Shown here: positions 5,692-39,484 of the stretch, in pieces
Layout: each line of letters starts with the position of its first letter
Numbering within the stretch: the first letter of the stretch is position 1
DNA from: Candidatus Dadabacteria bacterium
GTDB lineage: Bacteria > Desulfobacterota_D > UBA1144 > Nemesobacterales > Nemesobacteraceae
Length of the DNA: 64,000 nt
Direction of reading: 5' to 3'
Assembly: GCA_022822065.1 (NCBI GenBank)
Contig: JAJECI010000001.1
Coordinates: 23,141-87,140 of the forward strand
Program-made: the position numbers and the translations under genes
The notes under the pieces: model-generated
What the model was told of the DNA's origin: nothing
Database searches by the model: none
Seen by the model: the letters and a program-made list of their open reading frames with translations, nothing else

Positions 5692-6068
5692 AATAAGTTA
5701 GCTTCTGATCTTACGAGACAGAACCACCCCGTTCGTGTTTCTACATGCAAAGTCATTCAGGGCACTCTTGATTCCAATGCATGAATAATACCTCTCAAGC
5801 CACCTTTTAACCTTTAAAATTGTATTAAATATTGAAAACTTTCTTGGAATCCTAAAACATTTTTATACTATTTTCGCTGTCAAGATGCTTTGCAAATAGT
5901 CTTTAAGCACTTGTGCAATCCCGACCAACCATAGGCCGATTGGATGTCACCAGCGTTTCACCGCTGGACAGCAACAAAGTTCCACAGAAGAGGGAATTCC
6001 CGAATTTTCTTGAATTTTCCCGTTTTTTCTCACAAAATAATCAGCAACAACCAAGACGTGAGTCCGCT

Positions 6069-6248
6069 ATGTCCGATGAAATTATGACTCTCAAAGAAAT
6101 AGCTGAATACCTGAAACTGAAGGAGAAAACCGCTTACCGGCATGCTGCCGAAGGTATTTTGCCAGGGTTCAAAGTTGGTGGCGCATGGAGATTCAGAAAG
6201 GCGGACATCGATGCGTGGATCGAAAAAAACAAGAATTCCGCACAATGA
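6069..6248 (+). CDS. Small helix-turn-helix DNA-binding protein (excisionase/AlpA/MerR-like HTH_17 type), putative regulator coupled to the methyltransferase.
   Basis: MSDEIMTLKEIAEYLKLKEKTAYRHAAEGILPGFKVGGAWRFRKADIDAWIEKNK (60 aa). Its stop (6246-6248) overlaps the MTase ATG (6245) as ATGA. The listed longer ORF 5913..6248 has no support upstream of this Met. Confidence 0.55.
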   Translation: MSDEIMTLKEIAEYLKLKEKTAYRHAAEGILPGFKVGGAWRFRKADIDAWIEKNKNSAQ

Positions 6249-7783
6249 CGAAAAAGAGTAAAACCTATCCCGTAATTGATCTGTTTGCTGGGCCCGGAGG
6301 ATTGGGCGAAGGATTTGCATCTCTCAAAAATAAAAACGGCAAAGCTGCATTTGAGTCAGTTGCATCAATAGAAACGGACAAAACTGCTCATGACACATTG
6401 ACGCTCCGACATTTCTTCCGCTGCTTCCGGGAAGACCAGGTCCCCGAGGCCTATTACAGATATGTGTCTGGAGAAATTTCAAAGTCAGATTTAATCGAAC
6501 TTTATCCAAAGCAATGGAATATCGCCTGTGAAAGCTCATTGAATATAACTCTTGGAAGCGAAAACCACGAACTTGTAAAAAAGGCGATAAAAAAGCGTCT
6601 GGCTAGATCAAAAAACTGGGTTCTTGTTGGTGGGCCACCGTGTCAGGCTTATTCTCTTGTCGGACGTTCCCGCATGATGAGAATAGATGGATTTGAAAAA
6701 GATGAGAGACATTTTCTCTACCGCGAATACCTGAAGATAATTGTTGATCACAGGCCTCCGGTTTTCGTCATGGAGAACGTAAAGGGGCTTCTTTCTTCCA
6801 AGACCGATGGGGAATTTGTCGTTCAGAAAATTGTCGATGATCTTTCCAGTCCTATAAAAGCAGTTACGTCAAGACAGAATGGACTACGATACAACCTTTA
6901 CCCGCTTAGCTCTGCCCGGCTTTTCAAGCACGAAGTTGATCCTTGGGAATTCGTTGTCAGGGCTGAGGCTTATGGCATACCCCAAGCACGGCACCGGATG
7001 TTCGTTGTTGGCATCAGGGAAGATATTGATATCAGCCCATCCCCCCTTTCTCCTTCTGACCCTCCGAATGTAAAAAAGGTTATCGGCAACCTGCCTAGGA
7101 TCAGAAGTGGTGTATCTAAAGGCAGCGACTCTCCAGAAAGGTGGCGTTCTATTGTCTCAGAAGCTGCAGAAAGCACATGGCTGAGACAGTTAAGATCTTC
7201 TGATTATGAACGGCTAGTCTCAAAACTTGAGGCTGTAATTTCAAAAATTTCTCATGCTCCGCAACGAACAAGTGCAAAAACGTATAAATCGACACCTGTT
7301 CTGAATGGGTGGTTTTACGATGAACGACTGAAATCTCTTCTCTCACATGAAGCGCGCTCTCACATGCCCAGTGATCTTCATAGGTATCTTTTTGTATCAA
7401 CTTATGCTTCTGTTTTCAGATATTCACCAAAGCTTACAGATTTCCCAGATGCTCTTTTACCGAAGCATCGAAGTGCGTCTCGAGAAAGAAATCCTGTAGC
7501 TTTTTCTGATCGTTTCAGAGTTCAGCTTTGTGAGCGGGTAGCTACAACTATAACTTCACACATTTCAAAGGATGGTCATTATTTCATCCATTATGATCCG
7601 GTTCAATGTCGCAGCCTAACTGTTCGTGAAGCGGCAAGGTTGCAGACCTTTCCGGATAATTATCATTTTGAGGGACCCAGAACATCGCAATACCATCAAA
7701 TTGGTAACGCTGTTCCTCCCTATCTCGCAAGGCAGATTGCAGAAGTAATAAAAGAAGTCATGGACACACTGCCCGAAGACTGA
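6245..7783 (+). CDS. dcm: DNA (cytosine-5)-methyltransferase.
   Basis: Motifs are I DLFAGPGGLGEGF, IV GGPPCQAYS, VI VFVMENVKGL and X QIGNAVPPYLA. The start is taken at MTKKSKTYPVIDLF (6245). The listed start at 6185 overlaps the HTH gene. Confidence 0.9.
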   Translation: MTKKSKTYPVIDLFAGPGGLGEGFASLKNKNGKAAFESVASIETDKTAHDTLTLRHFFRCFREDQVPEAYYRYVSGEISKSDLIELYPKQWNIACESSLNITLGSENHELVKKAIKKRLARSKNWVLVGGPPCQAYSLVGRSRMMRIDGFEKDERHFLYREYLKIIVDHRPPVFVMENVKGLLSSKTDGEFVVQKIVDDLSSPIKAVTSRQNGLRYNLYPLSSARLFKHEVDPWEFVVRAEAYGIPQARHRMFVVGIREDIDISPSPLSPSDPPNVKKVIGNLPRIRSGVSKGSDSPERWRSIVSEAAESTWLRQLRSSDYERLVSKLEAVISKISHAPQRTSAKTYKSTPVLNGWFYDERLKSLLSHEARSHMPSDLHRYLFVSTYASVFRYSPKLTDFPDALLPKHRSASRERNPVAFSDRFRVQLCERVATTITSHISKDGHYFIHYDPVQCRSLTVREAARLQTFPDNYHFEGPRTSQYHQIGNAVPPYLARQIAEVIKEVMDTLPED

Positions 7784-8196
7784 TGACTGATATTTTGAGC
7801 AAAGAAAAGAGAAGCTGGAACATGTCCCGAATCCGTTCGGGAAACACAAAACCGGAAATTGCGGTTCGCCGTATTCTTCATTTCCTCGGATACAGGTTCA
7901 GACTGCACAGAAAGGACCTGCCCGGAAAGCCGGACATTGTTTTGCCGAAATACAAAACCGTTATCTTTGTTCATGGCTGTTTCTGGCACAGACATGAAAA
8001 CTGCCGGTACTCCTACAACCCGAAATCACGCACAAAATTCTGGCAGAATAAATTCGCAGCCAATATTGAGCGGGATAAACAGAATGCAGCAAAACTGGAA
8101 ATACTTGGTTGGCGACGGCTTGTGATCTGGGAATGTGAGACAAAGAACCCGGAGAATATTCGCTCCATTATTGAACGGTTCTTTGAAAAAATTTGA
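7783..8196 (+). CDS. vsr: Very short patch repair endonuclease.
   Basis: RSGNTKPE…GKPDIVLPKY…VIFVHGCFWHRHENC signature. The ATG overlaps the dcm stop (TGATG at 7781-7785). Confidence 0.9.
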   Translation: MTDILSKEKRSWNMSRIRSGNTKPEIAVRRILHFLGYRFRLHRKDLPGKPDIVLPKYKTVIFVHGCFWHRHENCRYSYNPKSRTKFWQNKFAANIERDKQNAAKLEILGWRRLVIWECETKNPENIRSIIERFFEKI

Positions 8197-8342
8197 GATT
8201 TAAAGGCCTTCTGCTCACATATATTAGCCCTCTTACTTTCATATATTCACTAATTTTCGACATATATACTGCATATATATCTGCATAGACGTATCAAATC
8301 TACCCTTAAAATGATACATTTGGCATTTATATATGAAATATA

Positions 8343-8371
8343 TTGACAATATTACATCGTTGGTGTATACT
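8343..8371 (+). promoter_or_regulatory. Near-consensus sigma70 promoter driving the four-gene candidate operon.
   Basis: TTGACA (8343-8348), 17-nt spacer, TATACT (8366-8371). An AGGAGA RBS at 8383-8388 precedes the ATG at 8395. It lies in an AT-rich region with CATATAT-type repeats. Confidence 0.5.
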
Positions 8372-8394
8372 TACCCTTAAACAGGAGACTGGTA

Positions 8395-8625
8395 ATGCGC
8401 GATAAACGTAAAAAATTTGTTGAGCTGGCAGAAGCCAGAGTGAACCGTGCAGTTAAAGATATCCGGCTTATCGGCAATCTCTCCAACCGAGGTTCTTATG
8501 AATATTCAGAGCAAGATGCGCGCGAGATTTTCAAGGCACTCCAAAAGGAACTTGACGCTGCAAAAAGCAGGTTCTCTGAAAATGGTGAGGGTGGAGTCGA
8601 TTCATTTCGACTGAGCAGTCGCTGA
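8395..8625 (+). CDS. 76-aa hypothetical protein, charged and probably helical or coiled-coil. It is the first gene of the candidate operon.
   Basis: Good RBS and promoter. No recognisable motif. A 6-bp-stem hairpin (8595-8612) lies in the 3' end. Confidence 0.5.
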   Translation: MRDKRKKFVELAEARVNRAVKDIRLIGNLSNRGSYEYSEQDAREIFKALQKELDAAKSRFSENGEGGVDSFRLSSR

Positions 8626-8672
8626 TATTTGAAACGCAGACAGTAAAGAACATTTGTTTATAAGAGGTACAA

Positions 8673-10598
8673 TTGATGAGTGAAATACGACTTGAATTTT
8701 TGCCCAATGTAGGAGGGGAAGCCGAGGGCCTCAGTGATGGGGGCATAGAAACTTTTCGCGAAAATCCATTCGCCGCTGTTGCCCGTGAAACAGGCCAGAA
8801 CAGCCGCGACGCCCGCGACGATACTAATAACCCAGTAAAACTTACTTTCGACATCGTGACGCTAGAGTCAGAGAAATTTCCGTCTATCGAGCAGTACAGA
8901 GAAGCCGCCGAACTTTGTCTGGATAAATCATCCGCGGCAAATAAAGAGAAGGAAACGGGCTTCTTCGGGAATGCTTGCAAAATTCTTAATGCCGAAAATA
9001 TCAGGATTCTCAGAATTTCAGATTTCAATACAAAAGGCGTTCGTGGACCATGTAAAGAGGGTACCCCCTTCCATACGCTTGCTAAAACTGACGGCGTCAG
9101 TGAAAAGGAGGACAGAGACTCTGGTGGTTCTTTCGGCATAGGCAAGAACGCAACCTTTGCCCTTTCAGATATCCAGACTGTCTTCATTTCAACTCTCTAC
9201 ACAGATGAGAACGGAAACGGTCAGGTTCTCTGTATGGGAAAAACATTATTTATTTCTCATAGAGGAAACGATGGGGAGGAGAAAAGGGGGAAAGGATACT
9301 GGGGCAAGTCAGAAAGATATATGCCGTTAGACAGCCCCAGTGAAATTCCGGAATGGCTTCTGCGTGATAAACAGGGAACCTCAATTTTCTCCATCTGCAT
9401 GCGTGACAACCGGACAGACTGGCGCTACGAAATGGCAGCAGCAATACTGATCAATTTTTTCTGCTCTATAGAGCGCCAAGAAATGGAATTTGAAATTGAT
9501 GAGGGGTCGATCAAAATTAATCGTGGAACACTTCAGGCACTTTTCAGCAACAGCCGGGTCAACAAAGCTGTAGATGAGCTTAATGCACGTGTCGCGTTTG
9601 AAACAGCGAGAACCCTCCATGCCTGTCTGATTGATGAGCAGACTTTCATAGAAAATCTGGAGATCGAAGACTTGGGAACGGTCCGCATGCATATGCTGAT
9701 GCGTGACGGCCTTGGATATACAATCGGTATCATCCGTAACGGCATGTATATCACCGACAATCTCTCCCATTTTAACGAACCCTTCAAACGCTTTCCGCTC
9801 CACCGTGATTTTGCTGTAATTATTGAGCCCGTCGGTAAAAGAGAAGGTGAGTGGTTCAAACGACTTGAGAATCCCAGTCATAACAGTCTGTCTGCAGAGG
9901 GAATAACCGACCCTGAACTCAGAGCCAAGGGGCGTAAAGCTTTTGAGAAACTTGCAAAAAAAATACGCAGCAGAATCCAAGCGTTGGCCAAGTCACAGCC
10001 GTCGAATACACTGGAGCTCGATGAACTGAATGATTTCTTCGCCTCGGATGAAACAAGAAGCGAAGATGATGCCGGAATGGAAACAGATCCCCAATCAAAA
10101 AAGCCCACGCCTGTCAGGCCTGTAAAACCCAAGCCACCAACTCCTGATTCCCGCAAACAAACTTCACCAGATGACCCTCCTATCCCCGGACCCGAACCCG
10201 GACCTGAACCAGTTGATGAACCCTCTCCAGATCCGGAGCCACGACCGGAGCCCGGACCAGTACCACATCCAAGGAAGATCATGAAACCAGTTGAATTGAT
10301 ATCAGAACGTGCCCTGATACCGGACAAGTCAAATGCGAGCAGAAGGCAGTTCAGATTCACTTCGCCCATTTCTGCAGAGATCGTGCTCTATGCCGATGCA
10401 ACCGGCTTGACAAACTCTGAACGTCTAAACCCAGTAAGCACATCGGAAGGCCGAATCGAGAACAGTGCTATTGAAGTGTCTTGCACAGCGAATCAGCGTA
10501 ACAGCATTGATGTGGTCTTTGATGCCCCTTATACCGGCCCTGTCGAAATCTTAGCTTACCAAGTTGAAGAAGAACAACAGGCAGGAGAGTCGGCATGA
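8673..10598 (+). CDS. GHKL-superfamily (MORC/MutL/Hsp90-like, HATPase_c_3-type) ATPase with a Pro/Glu/Gly-rich linker and a C-terminal domain of unknown function.
   Basis: Bergerat-fold motifs are the N-box AVARETGQNSRDA (ExxxNSxDA, nt ~8787-8816), a G1-like ISDFNTKGVRG and the G2 box GGSFGIGKNA (nt ~9124-9150). A PEPGPEP-rich linker is at ~10080-10280. The start is TTG at 8673 or ATG at 8676, with an AAGAGG RBS. The stop overlaps the next gene's ATG (ATGA at 10595-10598). Confidence 0.7.
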   Translation: MMSEIRLEFLPNVGGEAEGLSDGGIETFRENPFAAVARETGQNSRDARDDTNNPVKLTFDIVTLESEKFPSIEQYREAAELCLDKSSAANKEKETGFFGNACKILNAENIRILRISDFNTKGVRGPCKEGTPFHTLAKTDGVSEKEDRDSGGSFGIGKNATFALSDIQTVFISTLYTDENGNGQVLCMGKTLFISHRGNDGEEKRGKGYWGKSERYMPLDSPSEIPEWLLRDKQGTSIFSICMRDNRTDWRYEMAAAILINFFCSIERQEMEFEIDEGSIKINRGTLQALFSNSRVNKAVDELNARVAFETARTLHACLIDEQTFIENLEIEDLGTVRMHMLMRDGLGYTIGIIRNGMYITDNLSHFNEPFKRFPLHRDFAVIIEPVGKREGEWFKRLENPSHNSLSAEGITDPELRAKGRKAFEKLAKKIRSRIQALAKSQPSNTLELDELNDFFASDETRSEDDAGMETDPQSKKPTPVRPVKPKPPTPDSRKQTSPDDPPIPGPEPGPEPVDEPSPDPEPRPEPGPVPHPRKIMKPVELISERALIPDKSNASRRQFRFTSPISAEIVLYADATGLTNSERLNPVSTSEGRIENSAIEVSCTANQRNSIDVVFDAPYTGPVEILAYQVEEEQQAGESA

Positions 10599-21930: not shown

Positions 21931-23490
21931 CTATCTTCTAAGATTTGAAGTCTTATACGACGCCTCTCCCGATTCCTCCCGAGCGATCGTCTTGTAATCG
22001 CATCCGACGGCCTTCGCAAGAGCCCCTAAACGACGGCCGACGGTCTCAGGATGCGGTATCTGGTCAGGCATATGCAAAGTAAGTTTTTCTCCGGTCCTCT
22101 CAAGCCTGGTACTTTCAAGAATCCGCGTCACCCCTCCAGAAACGGTGTAGGCCAGACGAAGCGCAAGCCCAGTAACTCTGGCTTCTTCAATATCATCTCC
22201 GGAAAGAAAATCTGAGACTTCCCAGCGACGGATCAGGTTCCCAATCGCCGCATGCCTTGAGGCAACCGAAAAAGCCACCCTTACCCTTTCGGGATGGGTG
22301 ATTCCTACAAGCGGCATCCGCAGTATCCTCAAAAACACCTGCTCCGCCCGGTACTCGGGATGTTCGGAAATCCCTATGTCGGAAAGATGGCAGGCGGCTA
22401 ATCTCAGCCTTGGATTCCCGGAGGACTCATCAGGAATCGCCGGCTCTATCCACCTGCAGAAAGCCTCGCCGTCCCCGATCGATCTTCCCGTCTTGAGCGC
22501 GATTTCCTGGCACATGACAATGAGAGGGTCCAGGGAACGCTGCTCCGGTGGAAGATCATCATATATGCACCCTTCCCGAAGGCCGTACGTACAGAACATA
22601 AGATCCCTTACTCCTGTTCTTTTCAGAAGACTTTTCATAAGCGCCGCGGCGTAGGGAGCGGATTCCATTCTGTTTCTTCCTATGATCCAGAGACTTCGAA
22701 GCGAGCCCGGGGATATATCAACCACCTCCCGAGTCATCTCAAGCGCCCTTGAACTCGAAAGACTGTAGCCGTGAACTATGCGAAGCGGGTAGTCCTCGGT
22801 TTCCATGTGTTTTTTCGCCAGAGCGCGCCACGACCCTCCGACGGCGTAGAAAGTTTTCTTTTTTGCGTTTTTAAGCCAAGGAAGTTCTTCAAGACGGGGG
22901 ACGATCAGTTTCTTGGCGGCTTTTCCTGGACTGAGGCCGCTTTCAAGAAGCGGAATGGTACCCAGCGGCAATGTGGCGTGATTTCTTATTTCTCCCTCGC
23001 AAATCTCTACCAGTTCAAGGCTTCCGCCTCCTATGTCCCCCATCACGCCGTCAGCGTCAGGAATGGCGCAGAGGGTGCCGAAGGCGGAAAGCCTCGCCTC
23101 CTCAATGCCCGAGAGCACCAGAAGCGAGATCCCGCATTCCCGCTCGACAGCCTCCTTGAAGTCGGAGCCGTTTGCGGCGTTTCTCACCGCGGCGGTGGCA
23201 ACTGCCTTTATTCCGGAAACTCTCATCGAGCGCGCGATATCCACAAAGCGGCTTATGGTCCTAAGGGACAGATCCATGCTTCGGGGTGACATCCTGCCCT
23301 CCGCGTCCATTCCGCGCCCTAAGCCGCAGGAGACTTTTTCATCAAGTATAGGAAGCGGGGCGCGTCTCGGTCCCTTGTAGACAACGAGACGTATGGAGTT
23401 TGATCCTACGTCGATTACGGCCACGGTCCCACCCTCGCCGAACGGCGTGGCGGGAGGAGATATTTCTGTCATAAGATTATTCCTGAACAA
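21931..23490 (-). CDS. ppx: Exopolyphosphatase / guanosine-pentaphosphate phosphohydrolase.
   Basis: N-terminal [15 protein letters not shown] (Ppx/GppA ASKHA fold). It overlaps the ppk 3' end by 14 nt. Confidence 0.85.
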
Positions 23491-25626
23491 ACTCAGCCGG
23501 CATTAGCGGCCGGGATTCGGCAAGTGCCTTGCCTCTCCCCGAAAGACTCGGGTTGGTCATAAAGTACTTGTGGGCCGAAAAATTGTCCCCTTCTTTTTTC
23601 AGTTTGTGGAAAGAGCCGTCCGGTCCCATTTCCCAGCTGTTCACGACATCTTTTAGATTAGCGACCATCACCTGCTCAACGAGTTGCTTTTTCACAGTGG
23701 CGTTTTCGATCGGAACAAGCGACTCCACCCTGCGGTCAAGATTGCGGGGCATCCAGTCTGCAGAGGAGATGAAGACCTTGCAGGCATTAGAGGGAAGCCC
23801 CTCCCCGGCGCCAAAGCAGATGACCCTGCTGTGTTCGAGGAAACGCCCCACGATGCTCTTTACCCTGATGTTCTCAGAAAGCCCAGGCACCCCGGGCCGC
23901 AGGCAGCATATTCCCCGCACGAAAAGCTCGATTCTTACCCCCGCGCGGCTCGCCGCGTAGAGCGCGTCTATGATCTTGCTGTCCACAAGAGAATTCATCT
24001 TGGCCCATATCACCGCCGGCCGGCCTTCGCGTGATCTATCTCGTCCCTTATCAACTCAAGCACCTTCGGGCGCATCGTGACGGGAGAGAAAAATATCCTC
24101 TCCATCTTCTCCGGAGTGGCGTAACCGGTCATGTAGTTAAAAAGCTTGGCGGCGTCCCGACCGAGCGCCTCGTCGGCCGTGAAGTAGCTGAGATCCGTGT
24201 ATATCTTGGCGTTTACGGGGTGATAGTTGCCGGTACCGAAGTGGGTGTAGGTGCGGATGTCAGAACCCTCCCTTCTCACCACCAGCGACACCTTGGCGTG
24301 GGTTTTAAGATCAATGAATCCGTAAACGACCTGAACTCCCGCGTCCTCGAGGTCATGAGCCCAGCGGATGTTGGCCTTCTCGTCGAAACGGGCCTTGAGT
24401 TCCACCATGGCGGTTACGGATTTTCCGGCCTCGGCGGCTTCTATGAGCCTTTTCACTATCGGGGAGTCTTCCGAGGTGCGGTAAAGCGTCTGCTTGATCG
24501 TGAGGACCGCCGGATCCGCCGCGGCCTGCTTCAGGAACTCGACCACGACGTCGAAACTCTCGTATGGGTGGTGGACGACAAAATCCTTCTGCCGTATGGC
24601 CGCTATCACGTCGCCTCCGAATTCCCTTACCCGCTCGGGGTAGCGGATACTCATGCGCTTGTAAAGAAGGTCGCTTCGCTCATCCAGTATTATCTGCTTC
24701 ACGCTCTCAAGCCCGAGCATCCCCTTGATTCTGAAGAAATGCGCGTCCTGGGCCTCAATCTTGTCCATTATGAAGTCGACGATCGCGTCCGGCATGTCCG
24801 CGTTGACGTCAACCCTGATCACGGATCCTCCCCTGCGCTGCTGCTTAAGGGCAGTTTCAAACGTTTCGACCAGGTCTTTCGCGTCCTCGTCTATCTCAAG
24901 AAGGCTGTCGCGGGTGATCTGGAAGATCCCCTGATCTTCGACCTCGAAACCCGGGAAAAGAGATTTCATGTTGTGCTCGATGACCTTCTCGATCGGGACA
25001 AACTGGATCTTCTTTCCTCCTGGAACCCTTATGAAGCGCTCAACCTGGGAAGGAAGCAGTATGAGACCCGTCATGCGCTTTTCGTCCTCGGCGCGGCTCA
25101 GCTGCACGGCGCACACTAGGCTTTCGCTCTGTATGAAGGGAAACGGATGCGCCGGGTCTATGGCAAGCGGTGTAAGCACCGGAAAAAGCTTTTTTGAGAA
25201 CCACTCAGAAAGCCACTCCGCGCTCGAGCGGTCGAGGCTCTCGGGAGTCACGATCTTGATCTTCGCCTTCTTGCAGAGGGAAAACAGTTCCTTTTCGCAC
25301 TCGTACTGGCTGTCAAGCAGGAAGCGCACCTTCTCCCTTATGGCCTCGAGCTGCTGGGACGGCGTAAGACCGTCTTTGCTGCGGTCGGTCACCCCTTCCA
25401 TTACCTGTCCCGCAAGACCCGCCACCCTTACCTTGTAGAACTCATCGAGGTTGCTCGCGGAGATGGATAGAAATCGCACCCTCTCAAGAAGCGGAACCTT
25501 CTTGCTTGCCGCCGTCTCGAGAACCCGCAGGTTGAAATCAAGCCAGGAAAGCTCCCTGTTAAGATACTTCTTGGAAGAACCCTTGGAACCTCTCTTGCTC
25601 GCGATGTCCGTTATCGAAGAAGCCAC
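23477..25626 (-). CDS. ppk: Polyphosphate kinase 1, read as two ORFs (24010..25626 N-part, 23477..24013 C-part) because of an apparent 1-nt frameshift in a GGCCGGCCGG tract.
   Basis: The N-part ends …[11 protein letters not shown]. The other frame continues [21 protein letters not shown]…, which aligns with the contiguous E. coli Ppk sequence (…GKPAHIIAKVNSLTD…). One extra C/G at ~24012-24020 would restore a single ~716-aa ORF. Confidence 0.85.
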
Positions 25627-25714
25627 TTACAACCTCCCGAGGGCGTGACATGCTGCGTCTTAACACCCACAACCCGTGAGTTTACATAATTCCTCGCTGC
25701 GTGGAAAGCCGAAC

Positions 25715-27292
25715 TCACTCCGCCACCTCCCAAAACGGCGTAATCCTCCCGAGGCGCTTCCACTGCGGCTGCGCCGTGCGAAGGCACTTTCTCACCCTGG
25801 CCTGCGACCATTCCTGCGCAAGGCGTACTACCGAAGGATCAAGCCTTCCGGGCTTGACCGCCGCCAGGATGTGCCGCGCGACTATCGCATCGTTTGTCTT
25901 TCCGAGGCTGTCCTGAAAGCGTCCCATGAGCTTCATGAAGGGCGGAACCTGGGGGCCGCTCCAAAGCGAATTGAAAAACTGCGTTGCGTAGCGGGCCTTT
26001 TTCCCCCGCTTTCTTATTTCGTGAAGATCCTCGTCAGGAAGGCGCGAAAGAGGCCTCGTATCCTCGAGAAAATAGCGCCACGTTCTTCTGAGCACGCTTT
26101 TCGCAAACGGTTTTACCGGCTGACTGAAAGCCTTGGAACCGGCTTCCTTCTCTACAGACGCGATCCATCGCTCGAACTGGAGCAGCAGGCGGGCGTAGCG
26201 GCGGCTCTCAAGATAGGAGGCCGCGTCCCCGACGGCGCGGCGCCGCTCGGCGCGAGCGATGCGTCTAAGACGCTCTATCGCAAGATCCTGCCCGGGAGCC
26301 GCGGAGGCTATCCTGGGAAGGGTCTCGCTTAAAAACACCTGCCAGTCCCGGGCCGGGGCCAGACGCTGCTGGAACCAGCGGAACTCTCCGTTAAAGGCCT
26401 TCCGCTTGTCATAGGGGAGTATTTTTTTGAAAGCCCGAAGCGCCGCGCGCACGCGTCTCATCGCCACCCTCGTCTGGTGCACCCCTTCCGCCCTTCCCTC
26501 GATGGTCGGAATCTCGTTTGCGAACATGTGTTCAAGCGCGCCCGCGATGATGAAATTAAACGCCTCCCCGACGCTCATCTCCTCCGTGAGCAGAACCTTC
26601 GGGGCCTTAAGCGGTCTTGGCCGAAGGGCCGGCCTCGCAAGAGCGTAGCCCCTCTGCGCCTTGGTAAGGTGGCCGAGACGTATGTCGTAAGCCTCGCAGA
26701 TCTCAAGGGCCACGTCGAACATCCGCGCCGGGTCCCCCGAGAGCAGTTCGAACTCCGCCTCGCAGATAGGCTCCTCAACGCGTCCCCCGGGTGTTTCGGC
26801 GTGAATCACTCCCTGATCCACCGCCAGTTCGAATTCGGCGCCCTTGGTCCTGATGCGAACCGCCTCGCGAAAAAAGTCCGTGGTGAACACGGGGCCGAGG
26901 CGCTTTTCGTAGCGCCGGCGGGAGAGCCTGCGGGCAAGCGCAGGATCGTCCACGGCGCTAAGATTCGGGGAATCGCCATTCACCGGAACGGTCCATTCGC
27001 AGAAATTCTGAAGGCCCGCGGGGCCTCGAAACGGCGCCTTTATGGTCTGCTCCCTTCCATTCCCGTTATCACGCACCCGAAGCACTATGTCGGATTTTCT
27101 GAGCGCATGGCGCGGGGTATCGAAATAGGTGCTTACGAGATGGCGCTTTGAGCGGCGGCCCTTGCGAAGGGGCTTAAGTCCCTTGTAGCGCAGAATCCGA
27201 TTCGCCACGGCGGGCGAAAGGGACAGCTTGAACTCCGTTTCCTCGTACACGACGTAAAGATTTAACCACCCGTTTTGTCCGCAATAGGACAC
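25715..27292 (-). CDS. CYTH-domain (triphosphate tunnel metalloenzyme) plus CHAD-domain protein.
   Basis: N-terminal ExExK signature (YEETEFKLSL) and a C-terminal helical CHAD region. It is the first gene of the operon with ppk and ppx. The start is uncertain (GTG at 27292 or GTG at 27250). Confidence 0.7.
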   Translation of the reverse strand: MSYCGQNGWLNLYVVYEETEFKLSLSPAVANRILRYKGLKPLRKGRRSKRHLVSTYFDTPRHALRKSDIVLRVRDNGNGREQTIKAPFRGPAGLQNFCEWTVPVNGDSPNLSAVDDPALARRLSRRRYEKRLGPVFTTDFFREAVRIRTKGAEFELAVDQGVIHAETPGGRVEEPICEAEFELLSGDPARMFDVALEICEAYDIRLGHLTKAQRGYALARPALRPRPLKAPKVLLTEEMSVGEAFNFIIAGALEHMFANEIPTIEGRAEGVHQTRVAMRRVRAALRAFKKILPYDKRKAFNGEFRWFQQRLAPARDWQVFLSETLPRIASAAPGQDLAIERLRRIARAERRRAVGDAASYLESRRYARLLLQFERWIASVEKEAGSKAFSQPVKPFAKSVLRRTWRYFLEDTRPLSRLPDEDLHEIRKRGKKARYATQFFNSLWSGPQVPPFMKLMGRFQDSLGKTNDAIVARHILAAVKPGRLDPSVVRLAQEWSQARVRKCLRTAQPQWKRLGRITPFWEVAE

Positions 27293-34859: not shown

Positions 34860-34933
34860 TGGCTGGGGCGGGAGGACTCGAACCCCCACTACCGAGACCA
34901 AAACCCGGTGTCCTGCCGTTAGACGACGCCCCA
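34860..34933 (-). tRNA. tRNA-Gln, anticodon TTG, CCA encoded.
   Basis: The reverse complement TGGGGCGTCGTCTAACGGCAGGACACCGGGTTTTGGTCTCGGTAGTGGGGGTTCGAGTCCTCCCGCCCCAGCCA folds as a cloverleaf. It has a 7-bp acceptor stem, the anticodon loop TTTTGGT and a GGTTCGAGTCC T-arm. Confidence 0.8.
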
Positions 34934-35111: not shown

Positions 35112-36371
35112 TTACCGGGAGCCCGAAGCGGTCTCGCAAGTGACGCCGGCGTATTCCCAGGAAGTGCAGTCATGCACTCCGGGTTCTGAATACGCACACT
35201 CAAGCAGGGCTTCTTCCGTACCGTCGCACTCCACATCGTCAAGCAGGAAAAGCAGCGAGGGCTGCCCTATCCAGATTACGCCTGTTACGGCGGTGCCTCC
35301 GGATAAACCCAACTGGCTGCACGCAACAGTCGCGTCGTCGTCATCCCAGAGGTCATCGCATATCCCCTTCCATTGCTTGGTATGATCATCGAATATCTGA
35401 AGAAGACCCGAGCTGGAATCCGACACCTCGCCGGTCTCAAGGCTGGTAGTGGAAATCAGTCGAAGGCTGCCGTCGGGAAGGTCGGGATAAACCGGCCCCA
35501 CGTCGAAACTTTCGACCTGCTCCGAATTGCCCGCGTCATCGGTGAATCTGATTCTTACCTTTACCCAGTTCTCCTCGTCCCCGGACTGAAAAACGTAGAC
35601 GGAATTCGTCGCGTCCGGAATTTCGGTCTCGTTGTAGGCTAGATCGGACCTGATCCATTGGTAGGAAAACGAACTCTCCTCCGCAGGCTTGCCGTCTGCG
35701 TCAGTGATCCCGGAGTGGTCTGCGGTCACAGAAACTCCCGTTTTGGTCTCCGTGCCCCTGATCGCGATATGGCCGACGGCGTCGTTGTTCGAGGTTTTGG
35801 CTTCGCAGCTGACGCCGAAAGCCTCGTTGTCGCCGCAGTTGTTCTCCCCGTGCACCGAATGCTTGCACTTGTCCTCTCCAAGAATCCTGGCCTCAGAACC
35901 CGAGCATTCAAGATCGTCGAGCAGGTAATACACCGACGGGTCCTCCGCGGCGCTTGCGGGCACCGCGAGCCCGGTAAGCGGAGTTCCTCCCGAGAGACCC
36001 AGCTGGCGACAGGCGACCTCCGCCTCCTGCCTGCCGATCACCCGAATATTGTTGTCCTCTTGCGTTCCCAGCGTCCCGAGTCCGTCATCGCATATCCCCT
36101 TCCATTCGCCGGTGCCGTCACCATCGGGGTCATCGAATATTTCAAGCCTGCCCGATGGGGCGGGAACAATAACAAGGCTCACTACCGTGTCCGTAGTCGT
36201 ATCCACCAATCTGAGATCGCCGTCCACACTGGTCTCCTGGGTGTTGACCTCAGCAGGCCCTCCCATAAGCAGAAGCCCTAGCAGAAGCCCGGCGGCCACA
36301 ACGAAAACGCGCGATACACTCAAGGCCTTAGTGACTCCTCCTCCAACGCGTACCGCGGAACGCCTCCGCAT
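35112..36371 (-). CDS. Secreted protein with two SRCR (scavenger receptor cysteine-rich)-like domains flanking a central beta-rich domain.
   Basis: N-terminal signal/TM segment. Two ~105-aa repeats match the SRCR pattern (GRLEIFDD…WKGICDD…ACRQLGLSGG…LDDLECSGSE…C…HNCG…GVSCE and the second copy LLQIFDD…WKGICDD…ACSQLGLSGG…LDDVECDGTE…HDC…GVTCE). Confidence 0.6.
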   Translation of the reverse strand: MRRRSAVRVGGGVTKALSVSRVFVVAAGLLLGLLLMGGPAEVNTQETSVDGDLRLVDTTTDTVVSLVIVPAPSGRLEIFDDPDGDGTGEWKGICDDGLGTLGTQEDNNIRVIGRQEAEVACRQLGLSGGTPLTGLAVPASAAEDPSVYYLLDDLECSGSEARILGEDKCKHSVHGENNCGDNEAFGVSCEAKTSNNDAVGHIAIRGTETKTGVSVTADHSGITDADGKPAEESSFSYQWIRSDLAYNETEIPDATNSVYVFQSGDEENWVKVRIRFTDDAGNSEQVESFDVGPVYPDLPDGSLRLISTTSLETGEVSDSSSGLLQIFDDHTKQWKGICDDLWDDDDATVACSQLGLSGGTAVTGVIWIGQPSLLFLLDDVECDGTEEALLECAYSEPGVHDCTSWEYAGVTCETASGSR

Positions 36372-36587
36372 CCGAGGAGATTTCTCGATTGTCCCAAAAG
36401 TGTTGTCCTCATCTTAAAGACTGTCTTAAATCAGGCAAGCTTTCCGGTTCCGATCGGCTTTTCGCCGCTCTTAGGCATTTTACTTTCACTACCCGGTTTT
36501 TGCAAGCAAAACAGATATTTAGAAAATGCAGAACTGCCGGGCATAAGAAAGGTCTGCAACCGGGAACACGGGTTGTCAGTGACCAGA

Positions 36588-37454
36588 TCAGTCCGCAAGA
36601 AAATGCCAGCCGCTTATCCCCCGGGCCAGGAAAACGTCAAATTCGGAAGAGGTTCCCAGGTACCCGTAGACTTCCTCCGCCTCACGCTGTTCCCCGAAAA
36701 CGGAAAAAACCGACGACCCGCTTCCCGAGACGAGCACGAAGCGCGCCCCGAGCGAGCGGAAAATCTCTCCCAAGGAAAGAATCTCGGGAAACATCCCGAA
36801 CACCGCCGCCTCAAGACCGTTTTCAAGGGGGAAATCCCCCCTGCGGAACCGCTCCGCAAGAGAAACGGGATCGACTTTTTCGGGCGGGCGCTCCGGGCGC
36901 TCCCAGTTTTCGTAGACTTCCCGGGTCGAGAGGCTTTTTCCGGGGAAAAGGATAACGTAGTGAAAAAGCGGGAAATCAGAAAGCACCCTCACCCTCTCCC
37001 CCGCTCCCTCGACAAACGAAGAGGTGGATCTTACGAAGAACGGGACGTCGGATCCGAGAGATGCGGCCATCCGGAGCAGGTCCCGGTCGGCAAATTTCCC
37101 GAGGACCCTGTTAAGGCCCACCAAAACCGCCGCGGCGTTTGAGCTTCCTCCGCCTAGGCCGGCGCCTAGGGGAATATTCTTTTTTATCCCTATGGAGACC
37201 TTTCTCTGAATCCCGGCTTCCTCAAGATAAATGTGGGAGGCGGCCACGGCGAGATTGTCTTTTCCGGAAGGCATTTCCCTCCCCGAGCATGAAAGACTTG
37301 ACCCTCTCCCCGGTTCTACCGAAATGCTTACTTCGTCAAAAAGGCTTACCGGCTGCAGGACGGACTGGAGTTCGTGATAACCGTCGGAGCGCTTTCGGAG
37401 GATCCTGAGAAACAGGTTCACCTTCGCGGGGGAGAGAAGCTTCACGAAACTCAT
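36588..37454 (-). CDS. ispE: 4-diphosphocytidyl-2-C-methyl-D-erythritol kinase.
   Basis: GHMP kinase motifs (PLGAGLGGGSSNAAA). 4-nt overlap with the upstream gene. Confidence 0.9.
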   Translation of the reverse strand: MSFVKLLSPAKVNLFLRILRKRSDGYHELQSVLQPVSLFDEVSISVEPGRGSSLSCSGREMPSGKDNLAVAASHIYLEEAGIQRKVSIGIKKNIPLGAGLGGGSSNAAAVLVGLNRVLGKFADRDLLRMAASLGSDVPFFVRSTSSFVEGAGERVRVLSDFPLFHYVILFPGKSLSTREVYENWERPERPPEKVDPVSLAERFRRGDFPLENGLEAAVFGMFPEILSLGEIFRSLGARFVLVSGSGSSVFSVFGEQREAEEVYGYLGTSSEFDVFLARGISGWHFLAD

Positions 37455-38221
37455 TTTCGCGCCACATCCGGCTCGAAATTCATCGCGAGCCTCACGCTTC
37501 TAAGCGGAAGCACCAGTCTTTTCAGCTTCCCGGTTTCTTCATTGAAGCTTAGAAGAAGCTTGAACACTATGTATTTCCCCTCCGGGTTTTTCTCCCGAAG
37601 CCTGTACCTGTAGACGAAAACGCGGCCTTCCTCCTCGTTTAACTTTGCGTACGGGCGGCCGAGAATCTCTATCACTTCCGAGAAGTTCGGGATTTCCTTG
37701 GGTTCAAGTGATTTTACGGCCGCGGTGCTTGTTTTCGCGAGTTTTTTCACTTCGGCCCCGCCCACCGAGCCCATCACTTTCCCGAGAACTTCCTTGTTTA
37801 TATACTTGGTGAAGCGCTCGGGAAAGACAATCTCGCAGAGCTTTGCCCGACAAAGCTTCATCCCCATCGCCAGATCGAAATTCCCCCTTTCGCTCTTTCT
37901 ACCCGGGTACTTCTTCACCAGGGGATAGGTCCAGAGCTCAGTGTCCGCGGCAACATGGGTTTTTACGGGCGGCGAGTAGACCATGAGCCACTCCACATCT
38001 CCCGCGAGCAGCACGGGTTTCTTGAAGATGAGGCGGAGACCGTCGTGGTCGCTCACGCTGAAATTCTCGCTGAAATCCCCGAGATGGCTTTTTACCTCAA
38101 GGAACCTGAAGAGCCGGCATCCCCCCACTCCCAGACACAAGACAAGCAGAAAGGATATGAGAATTTTTCTTTGCGAAGGCGACTTTCCCATCGGCGATTT
38201 GGCATTTTCCTCCAGATACAT
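37451..38221 (-). CDS. lolB: LolB-like outer-membrane lipoprotein (DUF4292/LolB family).
   Basis: Lipoprotein signal (…LVLCLGVGGC), position immediately upstream of ispE as in lolB-ispE operons, and a beta-rich sequence. The start is taken at ATG 38221 (AAGGA RBS 9 nt upstream). The listed 38248 start would read into the IS inverted repeat. Confidence 0.5.
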   Translation of the reverse strand: MYLEENAKSPMGKSPSQRKILISFLLVLCLGVGGCRLFRFLEVKSHLGDFSENFSVSDHDGLRLIFKKPVLLAGDVEWLMVYSPPVKTHVAADTELWTYPLVKKYPGRKSERGNFDLAMGMKLCRAKLCEIVFPERFTKYINKEVLGKVMGSVGGAEVKKLAKTSTAAVKSLEPKEIPNFSEVIEILGRPYAKLNEEEGRVFVYRYRLREKNPEGKYIVFKLLLSFNEETGKLKRLVLPLRSVRLAMNFEPDVARK

Positions 38222-38224
38222 TAG

Positions 38225-39484
38225 AGAATTATCCTTTTTAGTTAACAAAGGTTTCTGAGTCTCTTATGAGTTAGGTATAATATAGTAATGATAAGGACTT
38301 ACAAGTGCAGGGTGAGATTATCCAAGCCGGGGCATGAGAGGCTTGGGGAGATATTCGCAATGTCTGCGGAACTGTACAATGCCTGCCTTGAGGAGCGTAT
38401 TGACTGCTACAGGAAGACGGGTGAATCCCGTTCGTACTATGACCAGTGCAAGGCGTTGACCGAGGTGAGGGCGGAATTGCCGGAGTTCGCAGATATAAAC
38501 CTTCAGGTGTTCCGTGGTGTTCTCGGTCGTATAGACAAGGCGTACAAGTCATTCTTTCGCAGGGTGAGAACCAAGGAGAAAGCCGGTTTCCCCCGCTTCA
38601 AGAGTGGTCGGAGATGGCGAACCATCGAGATTAACGACCAAGCTTGGCATATGCTCAAGCGTGAGGGAAGCAAGTTCGTCCTCAAGGTAAAGGGGCTTCC
38701 CCGCATAGAAGTGAAGCCTTCCCGGGAACTCCCGCCTAATAATCTGCTTAAGGCAATACGAATTACCAGAAAGCCTTTGCGTACTGAAGTGGCCCTGTCT
38801 TACGACCTGCAGGCTCCCGAGGCAAAACCAGTCAGCAATCCCGTCGGGATAGACATGGGGGTATCGAAGCGTCTTACCTTAAGTAACGGGGAAACCGTGG
38901 AGAAGAGGGAGATAGACAGAAAGAGGCTGATACGCCTGCAACGCTCCGTCTCACGAAAGAAGAAAGGTTCTAACAACCGGAGAAAGGCCGTATCCCTGCT
39001 CGCAAAGGAATGGCAAAGGCTTACGGATAAGGAAAGAGACTATCTTCACCGTCTGAGTGCGGAAATAGTAAAGATGTACGGATTCATAGCGGTAGAGAAA
39101 CTAAGAACAAAGAGCATGCTCCGCAACAGGAATTTAGCAAAGAGCATCCAAGAGCAGGCTTGGGGCAGGTTCATTACGCTACTTAACGAGAAGGCTGAAA
39201 GCGCTGGCGTTAAGATGGTGGAAGTGGACCCCAAGGGAACCTCGCAGGAATGCTCAAGTTGCGGAGCAACGGTGCAGAAGAATCTGTCCGTCCGGACGCA
39301 TAAATGTTCATGCGGATATGAAGCGGACAGGGACGTGAACGCTGCGATAAACATCCTTCATCGAGGTATCTCGATTGCGGGCGGGAATCTTACCCGCATG
39401 GCCGGAAGGATGAGAGAGAAGCGGGGGGTTGCCCTCGCTCGGCCAAGAACAGTCCTTGAAAGTGTCAACTAAAAAGGATAATTC
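38225..39484 (+). mobile_element. IS200/IS605-family (IS1341-like, tnpB-only) insertion element bounded by 18-bp perfect inverted repeats.
   Basis: GAATTATCCTTTTTAGTT at 38225-38242 and its reverse complement AACTAAAAAGGATAATTC at 39467-39484. It encloses a single tnpB gene. The element interrupts the presumably ancestral lolB-ispE / fxsA intergenic region. Confidence 0.6.
38288..39472 (+). CDS. tnpB: TnpB (OrfB), RuvC-like RNA-guided nuclease of IS200/IS605 family.
   Basis: RuvC-I GIDMGV, a zinc ribbon CSSCG…CSCG and RuvC-III DRDVNAAINI. A TATAAT box lies ~10 nt upstream of the ATG. No tnpA is adjacent. Confidence 0.85.
   Translation: MIRTYKCRVRLSKPGHERLGEIFAMSAELYNACLEERIDCYRKTGESRSYYDQCKALTEVRAELPEFADINLQVFRGVLGRIDKAYKSFFRRVRTKEKAGFPRFKSGRRWRTIEINDQAWHMLKREGSKFVLKVKGLPRIEVKPSRELPPNNLLKAIRITRKPLRTEVALSYDLQAPEAKPVSNPVGIDMGVSKRLTLSNGETVEKREIDRKRLIRLQRSVSRKKKGSNNRRKAVSLLAKEWQRLTDKERDYLHRLSAEIVKMYGFIAVEKLRTKSMLRNRNLAKSIQEQAWGRFITLLNEKAESAGVKMVEVDPKGTSQECSSCGATVQKNLSVRTHKCSCGYEADRDVNAAINILHRGISIAGGNLTRMAGRMREKRGVALARPRTVLESVN

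Follow-up and report, generated by a model that had tools for sequence, protein, structure and literature searches.

Does a gene for an animal-type SRCR protein belong to the bacterial genome in which it is found and, if so, how did it arrive there and what does it do? The question is raised by a gene located between ispE and a tRNA-Gln gene within the window, the 64,000-nucleotide stretch of DNA analysed here (Table 1). The gene belongs to the MAG of a marine, Dadabacteria-type bacterium.

Gene organization and 5′ end

The gene product is organized as a signal peptide, an SRCR domain, an Ig-like domain, and a second SRCR domain, and is very acidic (pI 4.05). Public data hold an identical protein (P0001), and NCBI already names the homologues after the SRCR domain.

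The 5′ end of the window copy departs from that of its relatives. Translations of the relatives place their start codon at an ATG equivalent to position 36412 (MKTTRLGKLRN...), and nucleotide alignment reveals a 1-nt deletion in the window copy near 36363/36364 that throws this ancestral ATG out of frame, such that the ORF start has moved to 36371. The deletion may be genuine or may have arisen during assembly; in the former case, the frame change may reduce expression in this genome. A consensus scan upstream of the gene gives a number of sigma-70 matches that by itself is not above chance, and one candidate (Table 1) keeps both hexamers, with a variable spacer between them, even in relatives whose proteins are as little as ~60% identical.

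Table 1. Features of the SRCR locus (window coordinates).
Feature	Coordinates	Strand	Basis and remarks
tRNA-Gln(ttg)	34860..34933	-	ARAGORN; downstream edge of the insertion site
SRCR gene	35112..36371	-	ORF list; ATG start, 419-aa precursor, stop codon counted
C-terminal SRCR, residues ~302-414	35130..35468	-	PF00530 best stretch (residues 317-413); six Cys, insertion-free
Central Ig-like beta-sandwich, probably of AIR9-A9/SCAB-Ig type, residues ~195-295	35487..35789	-	Repeat identity and fold
N-terminal SRCR, residues ~50-190	35802..36224	-	PF00530 on residues 73-190; six Cys
Predicted Sec signal peptide, residues 1-44	36240..36371	-	Hydrophobicity and family alignment A1
Ancestral 5′ end of the SRCR gene	36363..36412	-	Translations of relatives and nucleotide alignment
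Sigma-70-like promoter candidate, TTGCAA-17-TAAAAT	36477..36505	-	Consensus scan; upstream of the SRCR gene
ispE (GHMP kinase)	36588..37454	-	Upstream backbone neighbour, synteny conserved

Two SRCR domains with an animal-type fold

The initial annotation of this DNA proposed two SRCR repeats, and profile searches bear this out. The whole protein matches Pfam PF00530 (SRCR) in two stretches with E=7.2e-30 and 103.7 bits (gathering cut-off 26.1), and both domains pass the cut-off, the N-terminal half alone giving E=8.4e-11 and 42.5 bits. Aligned with one another, the repeats show 38% identity (BLASTP E=1e-23), and the N-terminal one carries an insertion of ~18 residues between C94 and C121. Sequence matches in the PDB are to CD163, SCARA5, MARCO, DMBT1, and CD5L. 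Pfam matches of the whole protein are confined to SRCR families, with no collagen or coiled-coil, and no NCBIfam family matches it.

The AlphaFold model of the 419-aa protein (mean pLDDT 83.5, pTM 0.74) contains the SRCR fold, a beta-sheet cradling one alpha-helix. Foldseek aligns it with single SRCR domains of MARCO, SCARA5, M2BP, DMBT1, and SCARA1 at TM 0.78–0.86; for the C-terminal SRCR the values are TM 0.86 and rmsd 2.2 Å with MARCO (2oy3) and TM 0.83 with SCARA5 (7c00).

Each SRCR has six cysteines (C94/121/156/169/179/189 in the N-terminal and C338/351/382/392/402/412 in the C-terminal domain), and these are kept in 82–85 of the 85 homologues, a pattern that corresponds to group A rather than to group B with its eight. 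The other traditional mark of group A, encoding by two exons, has no meaning for a bacterial gene. Three disulfides are predicted per SRCR, and would form in an oxidising compartment.

The putative cation sites can be aligned with those of SALSA. Sites 1–3 are matched in the C-terminal SRCR at identical spacing (39/23/5), with D339, D340, E406, D378, D379, and D401 corresponding to SALSA D1019, D1020, E1086, D1058, D1059, and N1081; by the same token of identical spacing, D343 and D346 correspond to D1023 and D1026. The N-terminal equivalents are D95, D96, E183, D152, D153, and N178. Site-2 positions (D95, D96, and E183 in the N-domain) are kept in 81–85 of 85 homologues and site-3 positions stay D, E, or N in 77–85 of 85 (77–80 for N-domain D152, D153, and N178); in a few divergent paralogues the N-terminal SRCR is missing a disulfide along with some of the site residues. 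Both SRCRs retain the acidic cation-binding cluster of animal SRCRs, and cation and ligand binding are predicted for each. Experiments on SALSA show that the residues of these sites underlie the Ca2+-dependent recognition of widely differing ligands (PMC7043408); for the Dadabacteria protein, calcium dependence is predicted.

A central Ig-like domain

A central domain containing 'SFSYQWIRSD' and 'VKVRIRFTDDAGNSE' had also been noticed between the SRCRs; it is real, and is an Ig-like beta-sandwich. When modelled alone by AlphaFold it has seven strands and a pLDDT of 89.8, and Foldseek ranks the SCAB1 Ig domain (4dix_A; E=7.6e-5) first among its matches. Sequence searches with the domain are less informative vs Pfam, where nothing lies above threshold (Big_3_2 at E=0.079 only), and a PDB profile search returns only spurious polyubiquitin sums. 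However, it is 40–47% identical to tandem repeats of two ORFs (P0092 and P0100), both of which match PF23197 and PF16709, and one of these repeats (P0092 residues 168–260) coincides with the matches to those families. Such AIR9-A9/SCAB-Ig repeats occur in surface-protein-like ORFs of Dehalococcoidia/Chloroflexota MAGs and share the Ig-like fold, but the ORFs contain at least four tandem copies and no SRCR, whereas the SRCR gene has a single copy as a spacer.

Export signal

Residues 22–36 (VFVVAAGLLLGLLLM) are the sole strongly hydrophobic segment of the protein (Kyte-Doolittle 2.86) and form the h-region of a predicted Sec signal peptide, with a basic n-region on one side and, on the other, a GGP break and a c-region whose last residues, V-N-T, precede Q45. 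A [V/I/A/L]-x-[T/A] motif preceding Q, resembling the –3/–1 site of signal peptidase, is kept through family alignment A1, and cleavage probably occurs before Q45. The N-terminal signal/TM segment of the initial annotation is therefore upheld as a single hydrophobic segment followed by a conserved signal-peptidase-like site. Residues 1–45 have low AlphaFold confidence.

The need for 12 disulfide-bonded cysteines would place the mature protein outside of the cytoplasm. No sorting tag, lipobox, or autotransporter part is recognisable in the 419 aa, so the protein may simply remain periplasmic. The clade to which sponge Dadabacteria belong reportedly possesses type II secretion.

Distribution and the insertion site

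The SRCR family is present in ~26 species-level genomes of Dadabacteria, with one to five or more copies per carrier genome including tandem triplets. Full-length members are found only in Dadabacteria-type MAGs, apart from one record labelled Spirochaetia. As judged from recognisable bin names only, carriers with an identifiable source are sponge bins (CAR2, RHO1, the SB-series/VXNA01, the ROBB21 sample, and Langseth); the label 'Thermodesulfobacteriota bacterium' is the one applied to sponge cobiont MAGs.

The order ispE, SRCR, tRNA-Gln, uvrD is found in every carrier examined and spans independently assembled genomes, many with chromosome-scale contigs of 1.5–2.4 Mb. Homologues of ispE in Candidatus Dadabacteria are named 4-(cytidine 5'-diphospho)-2-C-methyl-D-erythritol kinase. 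The tRNA-Gln(ttg) neighbour reported in the initial annotation lies 178 bp downstream of the SRCR gene, and a tRNA-Gln gene is downstream in 15/15 primary-locus relatives checked. In two more distant sister Dadabacteria (L080 and L081), ispE, tRNA-Gln, and uvrD are directly adjacent without the SRCR gene, and this empty site shows that the gene was inserted after ispE and ahead of the promoter of the tRNA gene. The shared locus in ~26 species-level genomes and a codon usage equal to that of housekeeping genes, and unlike that of the defence island in the window, indicate that the insertion is old. The gene is under purifying selection, with dN/dS of 0.12–0.19 vs relatives over the mature protein and constraint on all three domains. 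These observations point to an old, fixed acquisition.

Horizontal acquisition had been proposed at the outset from the mostly eukaryotic occurrence of SRCRs and the adjacency to the tRNA gene. Acquisition is supported, by the empty site in the two sisters, but the tRNA argument does not hold. A recent tRNA-linked island was considered and rejected: neither an integrase nor an att-like repeat lies near the gene, the codon usage is native, the gene is situated 5′ of the tRNA promoter rather than at the tRNA 3′ end, and it is present at the locus in every carrier examined, the empty site being that of the two more distant sisters.

Other bacterial SRCR proteins and the donor

Other bacterial carriers of SRCR domains encode them in giant ORFs, located in Bdellovibrionales (L037/L038/L045), Paracoccaceae (L039), the Myxococcota-type Deltaproteobacteria OFTM157 (L040), and Gammaproteobacteria SB0662_bin_58 (L064). 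Their PF00530-type domains are 35–49% identical to the Dadabacteria SRCRs, but 3–8 of them occur per ORF, the ORFs range in length from 692 to over 4500 aa, and neither architecture nor synteny is shared.

A neighbour-joining tree of SRCR domains (142 domains, 98 columns, 60 bootstraps) recovers the Dadabacteria N-domains as its sole clade (77%), and supports neither bacterial monophyly nor any eukaryotic sister group; the tree thus establishes neither the donor nor a transfer from eukaryote to bacterium. In an exhaustive HMMER search with the C-terminal SRCR, the best 150 of 9,524 matching clusters are multi-SRCR giants ranked by summed score, none more than 44% identical, and there is no close donor among these 150. 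Searches of mobile elements also returned little: tblastn gave nothing against 50,697 phage records and only two weak matches in plasmids, both to the central Ig region, and IMG/VR matches are to the Ig region only.

Comparison with known SRCR proteins

The Dadabacteria domains share a fold of ~100 residues with the group A SRCRs of MARCO, SCARA5, and SR-AI/SCARA1 (TM 0.83–0.86, rmsd 2.2–2.5 Å, 32–40% identity), and have the six cysteines and acidic cation cluster in common with class A scavenger receptors. The architectures differ. Class A receptors are type II membrane proteins that carry their SRCR at the C-terminus, beyond a stalk that is collagenous, coiled-coil, or both, whereas the Dadabacteria protein has neither anchor nor stalk but a Sec signal peptide and two SRCRs parted by an Ig-like domain, with the insertion in the N-terminal SRCR. 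The region from the signal to the C-terminal SRCR is occupied by an SRCR and the Ig-like domain, which sets the protein apart from class A.

SALSA/DMBT1/gp340 and CD163 resemble the Dadabacteria protein in having several SRCRs per molecule. However, they are group B proteins (8 Cys) with CUB/ZP or transmembrane parts and far more SRCR repeats. A DMBT1/SALSA-type protein would have tandem group B SRCRs, SIDs, CUB, and ZP, and here the Pfam matches are solely to SRCR and the domains have six cysteines.

Eukaryotic-like proteins of sponge symbionts include ankyrin, LRR, TPR, WD40, and HEAT classes as well as fibronectin- and cadherin-binding genes, and are believed to sustain the association with the host and to pass laterally between symbionts (PMC8163846). 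The Dadabacteria SRCR similarly is a eukaryote-typical module of apparently sponge-associated bacteria, but is a disulfide-rich extracellular binding domain rather than a repeat of intracellular type; SRCR does not occur among the eukaryotic-like classes of that study. The literature search gave no paper on SRCR proteins of bacteria or on SRCRs in Dadabacteria. The sponge literature found treats host SRCRs only; in sponges, SRCR domains belong to the expanded families of immune recognition that are believed to tell symbionts apart from food bacteria (e.g. PMC4772301).

Proposed function and alternatives

We favour, with moderate confidence, the interpretation that this is a selected Dadabacteria gene encoding an exported, two-site Ca2+-dependent binder at the bacterium–host interface, acquired once and then inherited vertically. 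The final location, calcium dependence, ligand, and host-interaction role are those that we infer to be most likely from the sequence. The Sec pathway would export the small acidic protein from the cytoplasm with loss of the signal peptide before Q45, and the mature protein would fold in an oxidising compartment as SRCR, Ig-like domain, and SRCR. The acidic clusters of the SRCRs would constitute two Ca2+-dependent binding sites, as in SALSA/DMBT1, MARCO, CD6, and CD163. Candidate ligands are polyanions or proteins, for instance those of the sponge matrix, of cell surfaces, or of other microbes, and binding may serve to anchor the symbiont or, alternatively, to conceal it from recognition by the host. 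The SRCR module would have been gained once by the clade ancestor, combined with an Ig-like domain common among co-resident bacteria, and placed between ispE and tRNA-Gln; vertical inheritance with repeated duplication of the gene would have followed. The copy-number changes (one to five or more, with tandem triplets) resemble those typical of interaction genes, and a putative host-interaction role fits the recognisably sponge-derived carrier MAGs.

A broader reading, possible although somewhat doubtful, is that sponge and coral bacteria of several unrelated phyla have captured SRCR, an expanded pattern-recognition module of their hosts, and export it as a decoy or 'self' mimic; the exported SRCR would then compete with host SRCR receptors or occupy the ligands of those receptors. 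The phyla concerned are Dadabacteria, Bdellovibrionota, Alpha- and Gammaproteobacteria, and Myxococcota.

A role in periplasmic housekeeping, in which the SRCRs act on the bacterium's own envelope (LPS, peptidoglycan, or polyphosphate-like anions) or buffer cations with no host contact, is unlikely. It accords with the Sec-type signal unaccompanied by any outer-membrane targeting feature, with the strong acidity of the protein, and with the position of the gene amid housekeeping genes. However, sister lineages with the same locus manage without the gene, genes for envelope housekeeping would not usually vary from zero to five or more copies or be duplicated in tandem, and other bacterial carriers place their SRCRs in giant multi-domain ORFs of 1351 to more than 4500 aa. 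More improbable still is a secreted agglutinin-like binder directed at bacteria or phage of the sponge microbiome, serving in competition or as a phage decoy in the manner of DMBT1 agglutination. Animal SRCRs bind bacterial surface polyanions via the same conserved cation sites, and two binding domains per molecule could permit cross-linking, but the gene lies outside of the window's defence island and no known defence or phage family is matched; PADLOC and PHROGs give zero matches to the protein, leaving a defence or phage role without support.

That the gene is an artefact, either sponge DNA that has been mis-assembled or mis-binned or a decaying pseudogene, might be suspected given that SRCRs are overwhelmingly eukaryotic and that the window copy has a 1-nt deletion at its 5′ end. 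We regard this as scarcely credible, as the gene is one unbroken ORF whose neighbours, ispE on one side and tRNA-Gln/uvrD on the other, recur across many genomes of separate assembly, and as it has a bacterial signal peptide, a bacterial Ig-like domain, native codon usage, and the low dN/dS values given above. Contamination with host DNA is ruled out by synteny, selection, and codon usage.

Implications

An SRCR with intact ligand-binding residues, fixed and multiplying in a sponge-linked clade, is a testable candidate for attachment to the host or hiding from it. It also widens the range of eukaryotic-like proteins, so far mostly ankyrin, LRR, and TPR-type repeats, to include an extracellular domain rich in disulfides. 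As a small soluble two-SRCR protein it is also a potential recombinant model for SRCR ligand binding. Should it act only in the periplasm, it would still be an unusual recruitment of an animal-type fold into bacterial envelope biology. If instead the decoy or 'self'-mimic reading were true, these proteins would form a class of extracellular, eukaryotic-like symbiosis factors not described before, which would control recognition and phagocytosis.

Domain organization of the SRCR protein

The gene between ispE and tRNA-Gln encodes a member of the SRCR superfamily, as seen in its profile matches, fold, cysteine pattern and binding-site residues. A Pfam scan of the whole protein matches PF00530 (SRCR) in two stretches (E=7.2e-30, 103.7 bits; gathering score 26.1), with weaker SRCR_2 and Hepsin-SRCR matches in the same region. 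The N-terminal 197 residues by themselves retain a PF00530 match (E=8.4e-11, 42.5 bits, residues 73–190), and each repeat is thus an SRCR domain in its own right; the two are 38% identical (E=1e-23) and contain six cysteines each. PDB matches obtained with phmmer are CD163, PIT54, CD5L, SCARA5, neurotrypsin, MARCO, DMBT1, M2BP, CD6 and LOXL2. An AlphaFold2 model of the whole protein built with 21 family members (mean pLDDT 83.5, pTM 0.74) is disordered only at residues 1–45, and Foldseek superposes it on single SRCR domains of MARCO (TM 0.86, rmsd 2.2 Å, 38% identity) and SCARA5 (TM 0.83, rmsd 2.3 Å), and also of M2BP, DMBT1 and SCARA1. The two SRCR domains proposed in the initial annotation are therefore borne out by profile, cysteines and fold; the profile search was not blank and the fold is not an unrelated one. 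The six-cysteine pattern is group A-like. Lacking a collagenous or coiled-coil stalk, the protein falls outside the class A scavenger receptors, and it is not of the DMBT1 type either, having neither CUB nor ZP domains and six cysteines instead of eight.

The central domain (residues ~195–295) has no Pfam match when scanned alone, and is 40–47% identical to tandem ~100-residue repeats of two proteins, P0092 and P0100. Both match PF23197 (AIR9 A9) and PF16709 (SCAB-Ig) in Pfam, and in P0092 these matches coincide with the repeat at 168–260. Modelled by itself the domain has seven strands (pLDDT 89.8), and its top PDB match is the SCAB1 Ig domain (E=7.6e-5), followed by fn3/Ig-type sandwiches. 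Its nearest relatives are in Dehalococcoidia/Chloroflexota MAGs of the same data series, which suggests that the SRCR/Ig-like chimera was put together within the bacterial community.

Residues 22–36 (VFVVAAGLLLGLLLM) are the sole strongly hydrophobic segment. Across the aligned family it gives way to G-G-P and then to a conserved (V/I/A/L)-x-(T/A) ahead of Q, a candidate cleavage motif that reads VNT/Q in the window protein and ASA/Q, VGA/Q or ISA/Q in relatives; we infer a Sec signal peptide that signal peptidase I would cleave ahead of Q45. Neither a lipobox cysteine nor a C-terminal sorting domain is present. The mature protein is strongly acidic (pI 4.05; 72 D+E versus 21 K+R).

Genomic context and age of the insertion

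The window is ordinary chromosomal DNA, and the genes of this locus run in the order aminotransferase, BamD-like, OmpA, flavin reductase, TnpB, 265-aa unknown, ispE, SRCR gene, tRNA-Gln, uvrD, selO and dnaE, and the same gene order surrounds a 63%-identical homologue in four independent assemblies. In 15/15 primary-locus relatives checked, tRNA-Gln(ttg) comes after the SRCR gene or after the SRCR and dCache genes; in some relatives the dCache sensor gene separates the SRCR gene from the tRNA. Two more distant Dadabacteria (IspE 60–67% identical) have the same backbone, at loci L080 (1.98-Mb contig) and L081 (663-kb contig), where ispE is followed by tRNA-Gln within 47–75 bp and then uvrD, and the SRCR gene is absent from the 15-kb locus of both. 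A tRNA promoter-like 'GATGTGGTAAAAT' box is alignable in carriers and SRCR-less loci alike and, together with the empty site, places the SRCR gene in DNA inserted between the stop codon of ispE and the promoter of the tRNA.

Judged from these two SRCR-less lineages alone, a gain by the carriers and a loss by their sisters require equal numbers of events; acquisition somewhere on this branch is the sensible reading because the domain is nearly absent from bacteria at large. The insertion is an old event. The SRCR gene has a GC3 of 0.674 and a codon-usage distance to pooled housekeeping genes of 0.114 (housekeeping genes 0.07–0.13 versus 0.21–0.25 for the defence island at 3.5–10.6 kb), it lies 5′ of the tRNA, and no integrase or repeat was found at the locus. 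A recent tRNA-linked island is rejected on these grounds; the tRNA-Gln adjacency, initially taken as a sign of horizontal acquisition, does mark the insertion site but not a recent arrival.

Compared with ten relatives, dN/dS is 0.12–0.19 for the mature protein, 0.05–0.13 for the Ig-like domain and 0.10–0.29 for the SRCRs; synteny, codon usage and dN/dS exclude both host-DNA contamination and a pseudogene. A conserved leader lies downstream of the promoter-like element. A 1-nt deletion near 36363/36364, which may be genuine and truncate the 5′ end or may be an error of assembly, takes the ancestral ATG (36412) out of frame, and an internal ATG (36371) opens the ORF instead; the protein is intact from the signal peptide onward.

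Elsewhere in the window, the defence island (3583–10598, rightwards) has a low GC3 (0.37–0.46) and codon usage clearly foreign to the rest. TnpB looks like an insertion specific to the window; FxsA occupies the interval between the 265-aa ORF and the flavin reductase gene at six Dadabacteria loci (L001–L004, L080, L081), where TnpB is not called. The 265-aa ORF matches nothing in Pfam, PADLOC or PHROGs, and every Dadabacteria locus examined has a counterpart upstream of ispE, including the SRCR-less loci (as a gene of 246–247 aa).

Features of the window
Feature	Coordinates	Strand	Comment
GmrSD-type restriction endonuclease	3583–5691	+	In defence island
C5 cytosine DNA methylase	6185–7783	+	In defence island
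641-aa ORF	8673–10598	+	PADLOC candidate PDC-M33A, E=7.9e-97
Polyphosphate gene cluster	21931–27292	-	Exopolyphosphatase (ppx), polyphosphate kinase (ppk1), CYTH-CHAD protein; few kb from SRCR locus
SRCR gene ORF	35112–36371	-	ATG start, 419 residues
Ancestral 5′ end	36363–36412	-	Relatives start 16 codons upstream, MKTTRLGKLRN... (MKTTRLGKLRNRLGCKGC...)
Promoter-like element TTGCAA-17-TAAAAT	36505–36477	-	Both hexamers kept, spacer variable, in relatives to ~60% protein identity
265-aa ORF	37451–38248	-	Overlaps ispE start; codon-usage distance 0.237 (high)
TnpB/Cas12f-like gene	38288–39472	+	OrfB_IS605 + TNB domain; between 265-aa unknown and flavin reductase genes

Family members and their carriers

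The database protein P0001 is identical to the window protein, and full-length relatives form ~90 clusters (397–460 aa, 39–91% identity). Named relatives are entered as 'scavenger receptor cysteine-rich domain-containing protein [Candidatus Dadabacteria bacterium]'; NCBI's pipeline thus already calls homologues after the domain, and the SRCR call itself is therefore not new. A species-level scan (a single genome for each GTDB species) finds full-length members in ~26 genomes, labelled Candidatus Dadabacteria or 'Thermodesulfobacteriota bacterium', many on contigs of 1.5–2.4 Mb. One carrier record is labelled Spirochaetia, which is probably a naming or binning error, given an SRCR copy 76% identical and the gene order of the window. 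Two contigs of a MAG labelled 'uncultured Spirochaetia bacterium' (CAYSDX01; L013 and L017) contain SRCR genes 68–76% identical to the window protein; this MAG is probably a mis-assigned Dadabacteria bin.

The carrier sources that can be recognized are sponge bins (CAR2, RHO1, VXNA01/SB-series, the ROBB21 sample and Langseth). The sponge MAG study of Robbins et al. includes 22 Dadabacteria MAGs (PMC8163846), and a Sanger sponge genome note labels a 1.7-Mb sponge cobiont 'Thermodesulfobacteriota bacterium' as well. According to Graham and Tully, Dadabacteria from sponges belong to an 'organic carbon-associated' clade, which differs from the pelagic clades in having a type II secretion system.

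Copy number varies among the Dadabacteria. One genome has a tandem triplet (L014, 6547–10559), in some two copies are separated by a few kb (listed for L011, and for L025/L026/L028 at ~13.2–14.4 kb), and in some lineages an extra single-SRCR ORF lies beside the main gene (listed for L001–L004, 5264–5830). The 1.9-Mb genome OZ240231.1 (L032–L036) has at least five SRCR paralogues dispersed over the chromosome.

Origin of the SRCR module

The same scan reveals SRCR domains in other bacterial MAGs, including Bdellovibrionales (L037/L045/L038; OZ240230.1, OZ245336.1) with ORFs of >4500 aa containing 6–8 SRCRs and a 2006-aa ORF containing 5, a Paracoccaceae (L039; 1351 aa, 4 SRCRs), the Deltaproteobacteria bin OFTM157 (L040; 692 aa, 3 SRCRs) and the sponge Gammaproteobacteria bin SB0662_bin_58 (L064; >3263 aa, 3 SRCRs). 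Sandaracinaceae, Polyangiales and Azotimanducaceae MAGs also have the domain. The occurrence of these multi-SRCR ORFs in other phyla from similar MAG collections suggests that SRCR is a recurrent module of host-associated bacteria.

Mean identities of the Dadabacteria domains are 36–38% to other bacterial and 33–36% to animal domains, and 41% between the N- and C-terminal domains; the last value is consistent with internal duplication, for which the domain tree gives no support. Neither bacterial monophyly nor a eukaryotic sister group is supported in that tree, and none of the top hits in an exhaustive search matching 9,524 SRCR clusters exceeds 44% identity. Transfer from a eukaryote to a bacterium would be the more parsimonious reading, as few bacterial lineages have SRCR. 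Searches of phage, plasmid and IMG/VR collections yielded no SRCR.

Cation sites and proposed function

SRCR8 of SALSA (DMBT1/gp340) uses cations held at site 2 (D1019, D1020, E1086) and site 3 (D1020, D1058, D1059, N1081) to bind hydroxyapatite, heparin and a streptococcal protein; mutation of D1019 or D1020 abolishes binding, and MARCO, CD6 and CD163 use the same cation site (Reichhardt et al., PMC7043408). In the C-terminal SRCR, D339, D340, D378, D379, D401 and E406 reproduce the SALSA spacing exactly (39, 23 and 5 residues), and D343 and D346 match structural site 1; the N-terminal equivalents are D95, D96, D152, D153, N178 and E183. Of 85 full-length homologues, 81–85 conserve the site-2 positions, 77–85 have D, E or N at the site-3 positions, and 82–85 retain the 12 cysteines.

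From the conserved cation-site residues and the export signal, we propose that the protein would be exported from the cytoplasm via its predicted Sec signal and would bind ligand through calcium at two SRCR sites. The 12 disulfide cysteines need an oxidizing compartment, which agrees with export. In view of the hosts of the carrier genomes, its probable targets are molecules of the sponge matrix or cell surface, where it may serve in attachment or masking. A purely periplasmic role is the main rival to this two-site exported binder, and a binder directed at microbes or phage is also possible.

No papers on bacterial SRCR proteins were found in the literature library searched, and the eukaryotic-like classes that the sponge MAG study (PMC8163846) describes do not include SRCR. 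The protein fits the concept of the eukaryotic-like proteins of sponge symbionts and, with its putative function directly testable, is of interest to the symbiosis specialist.
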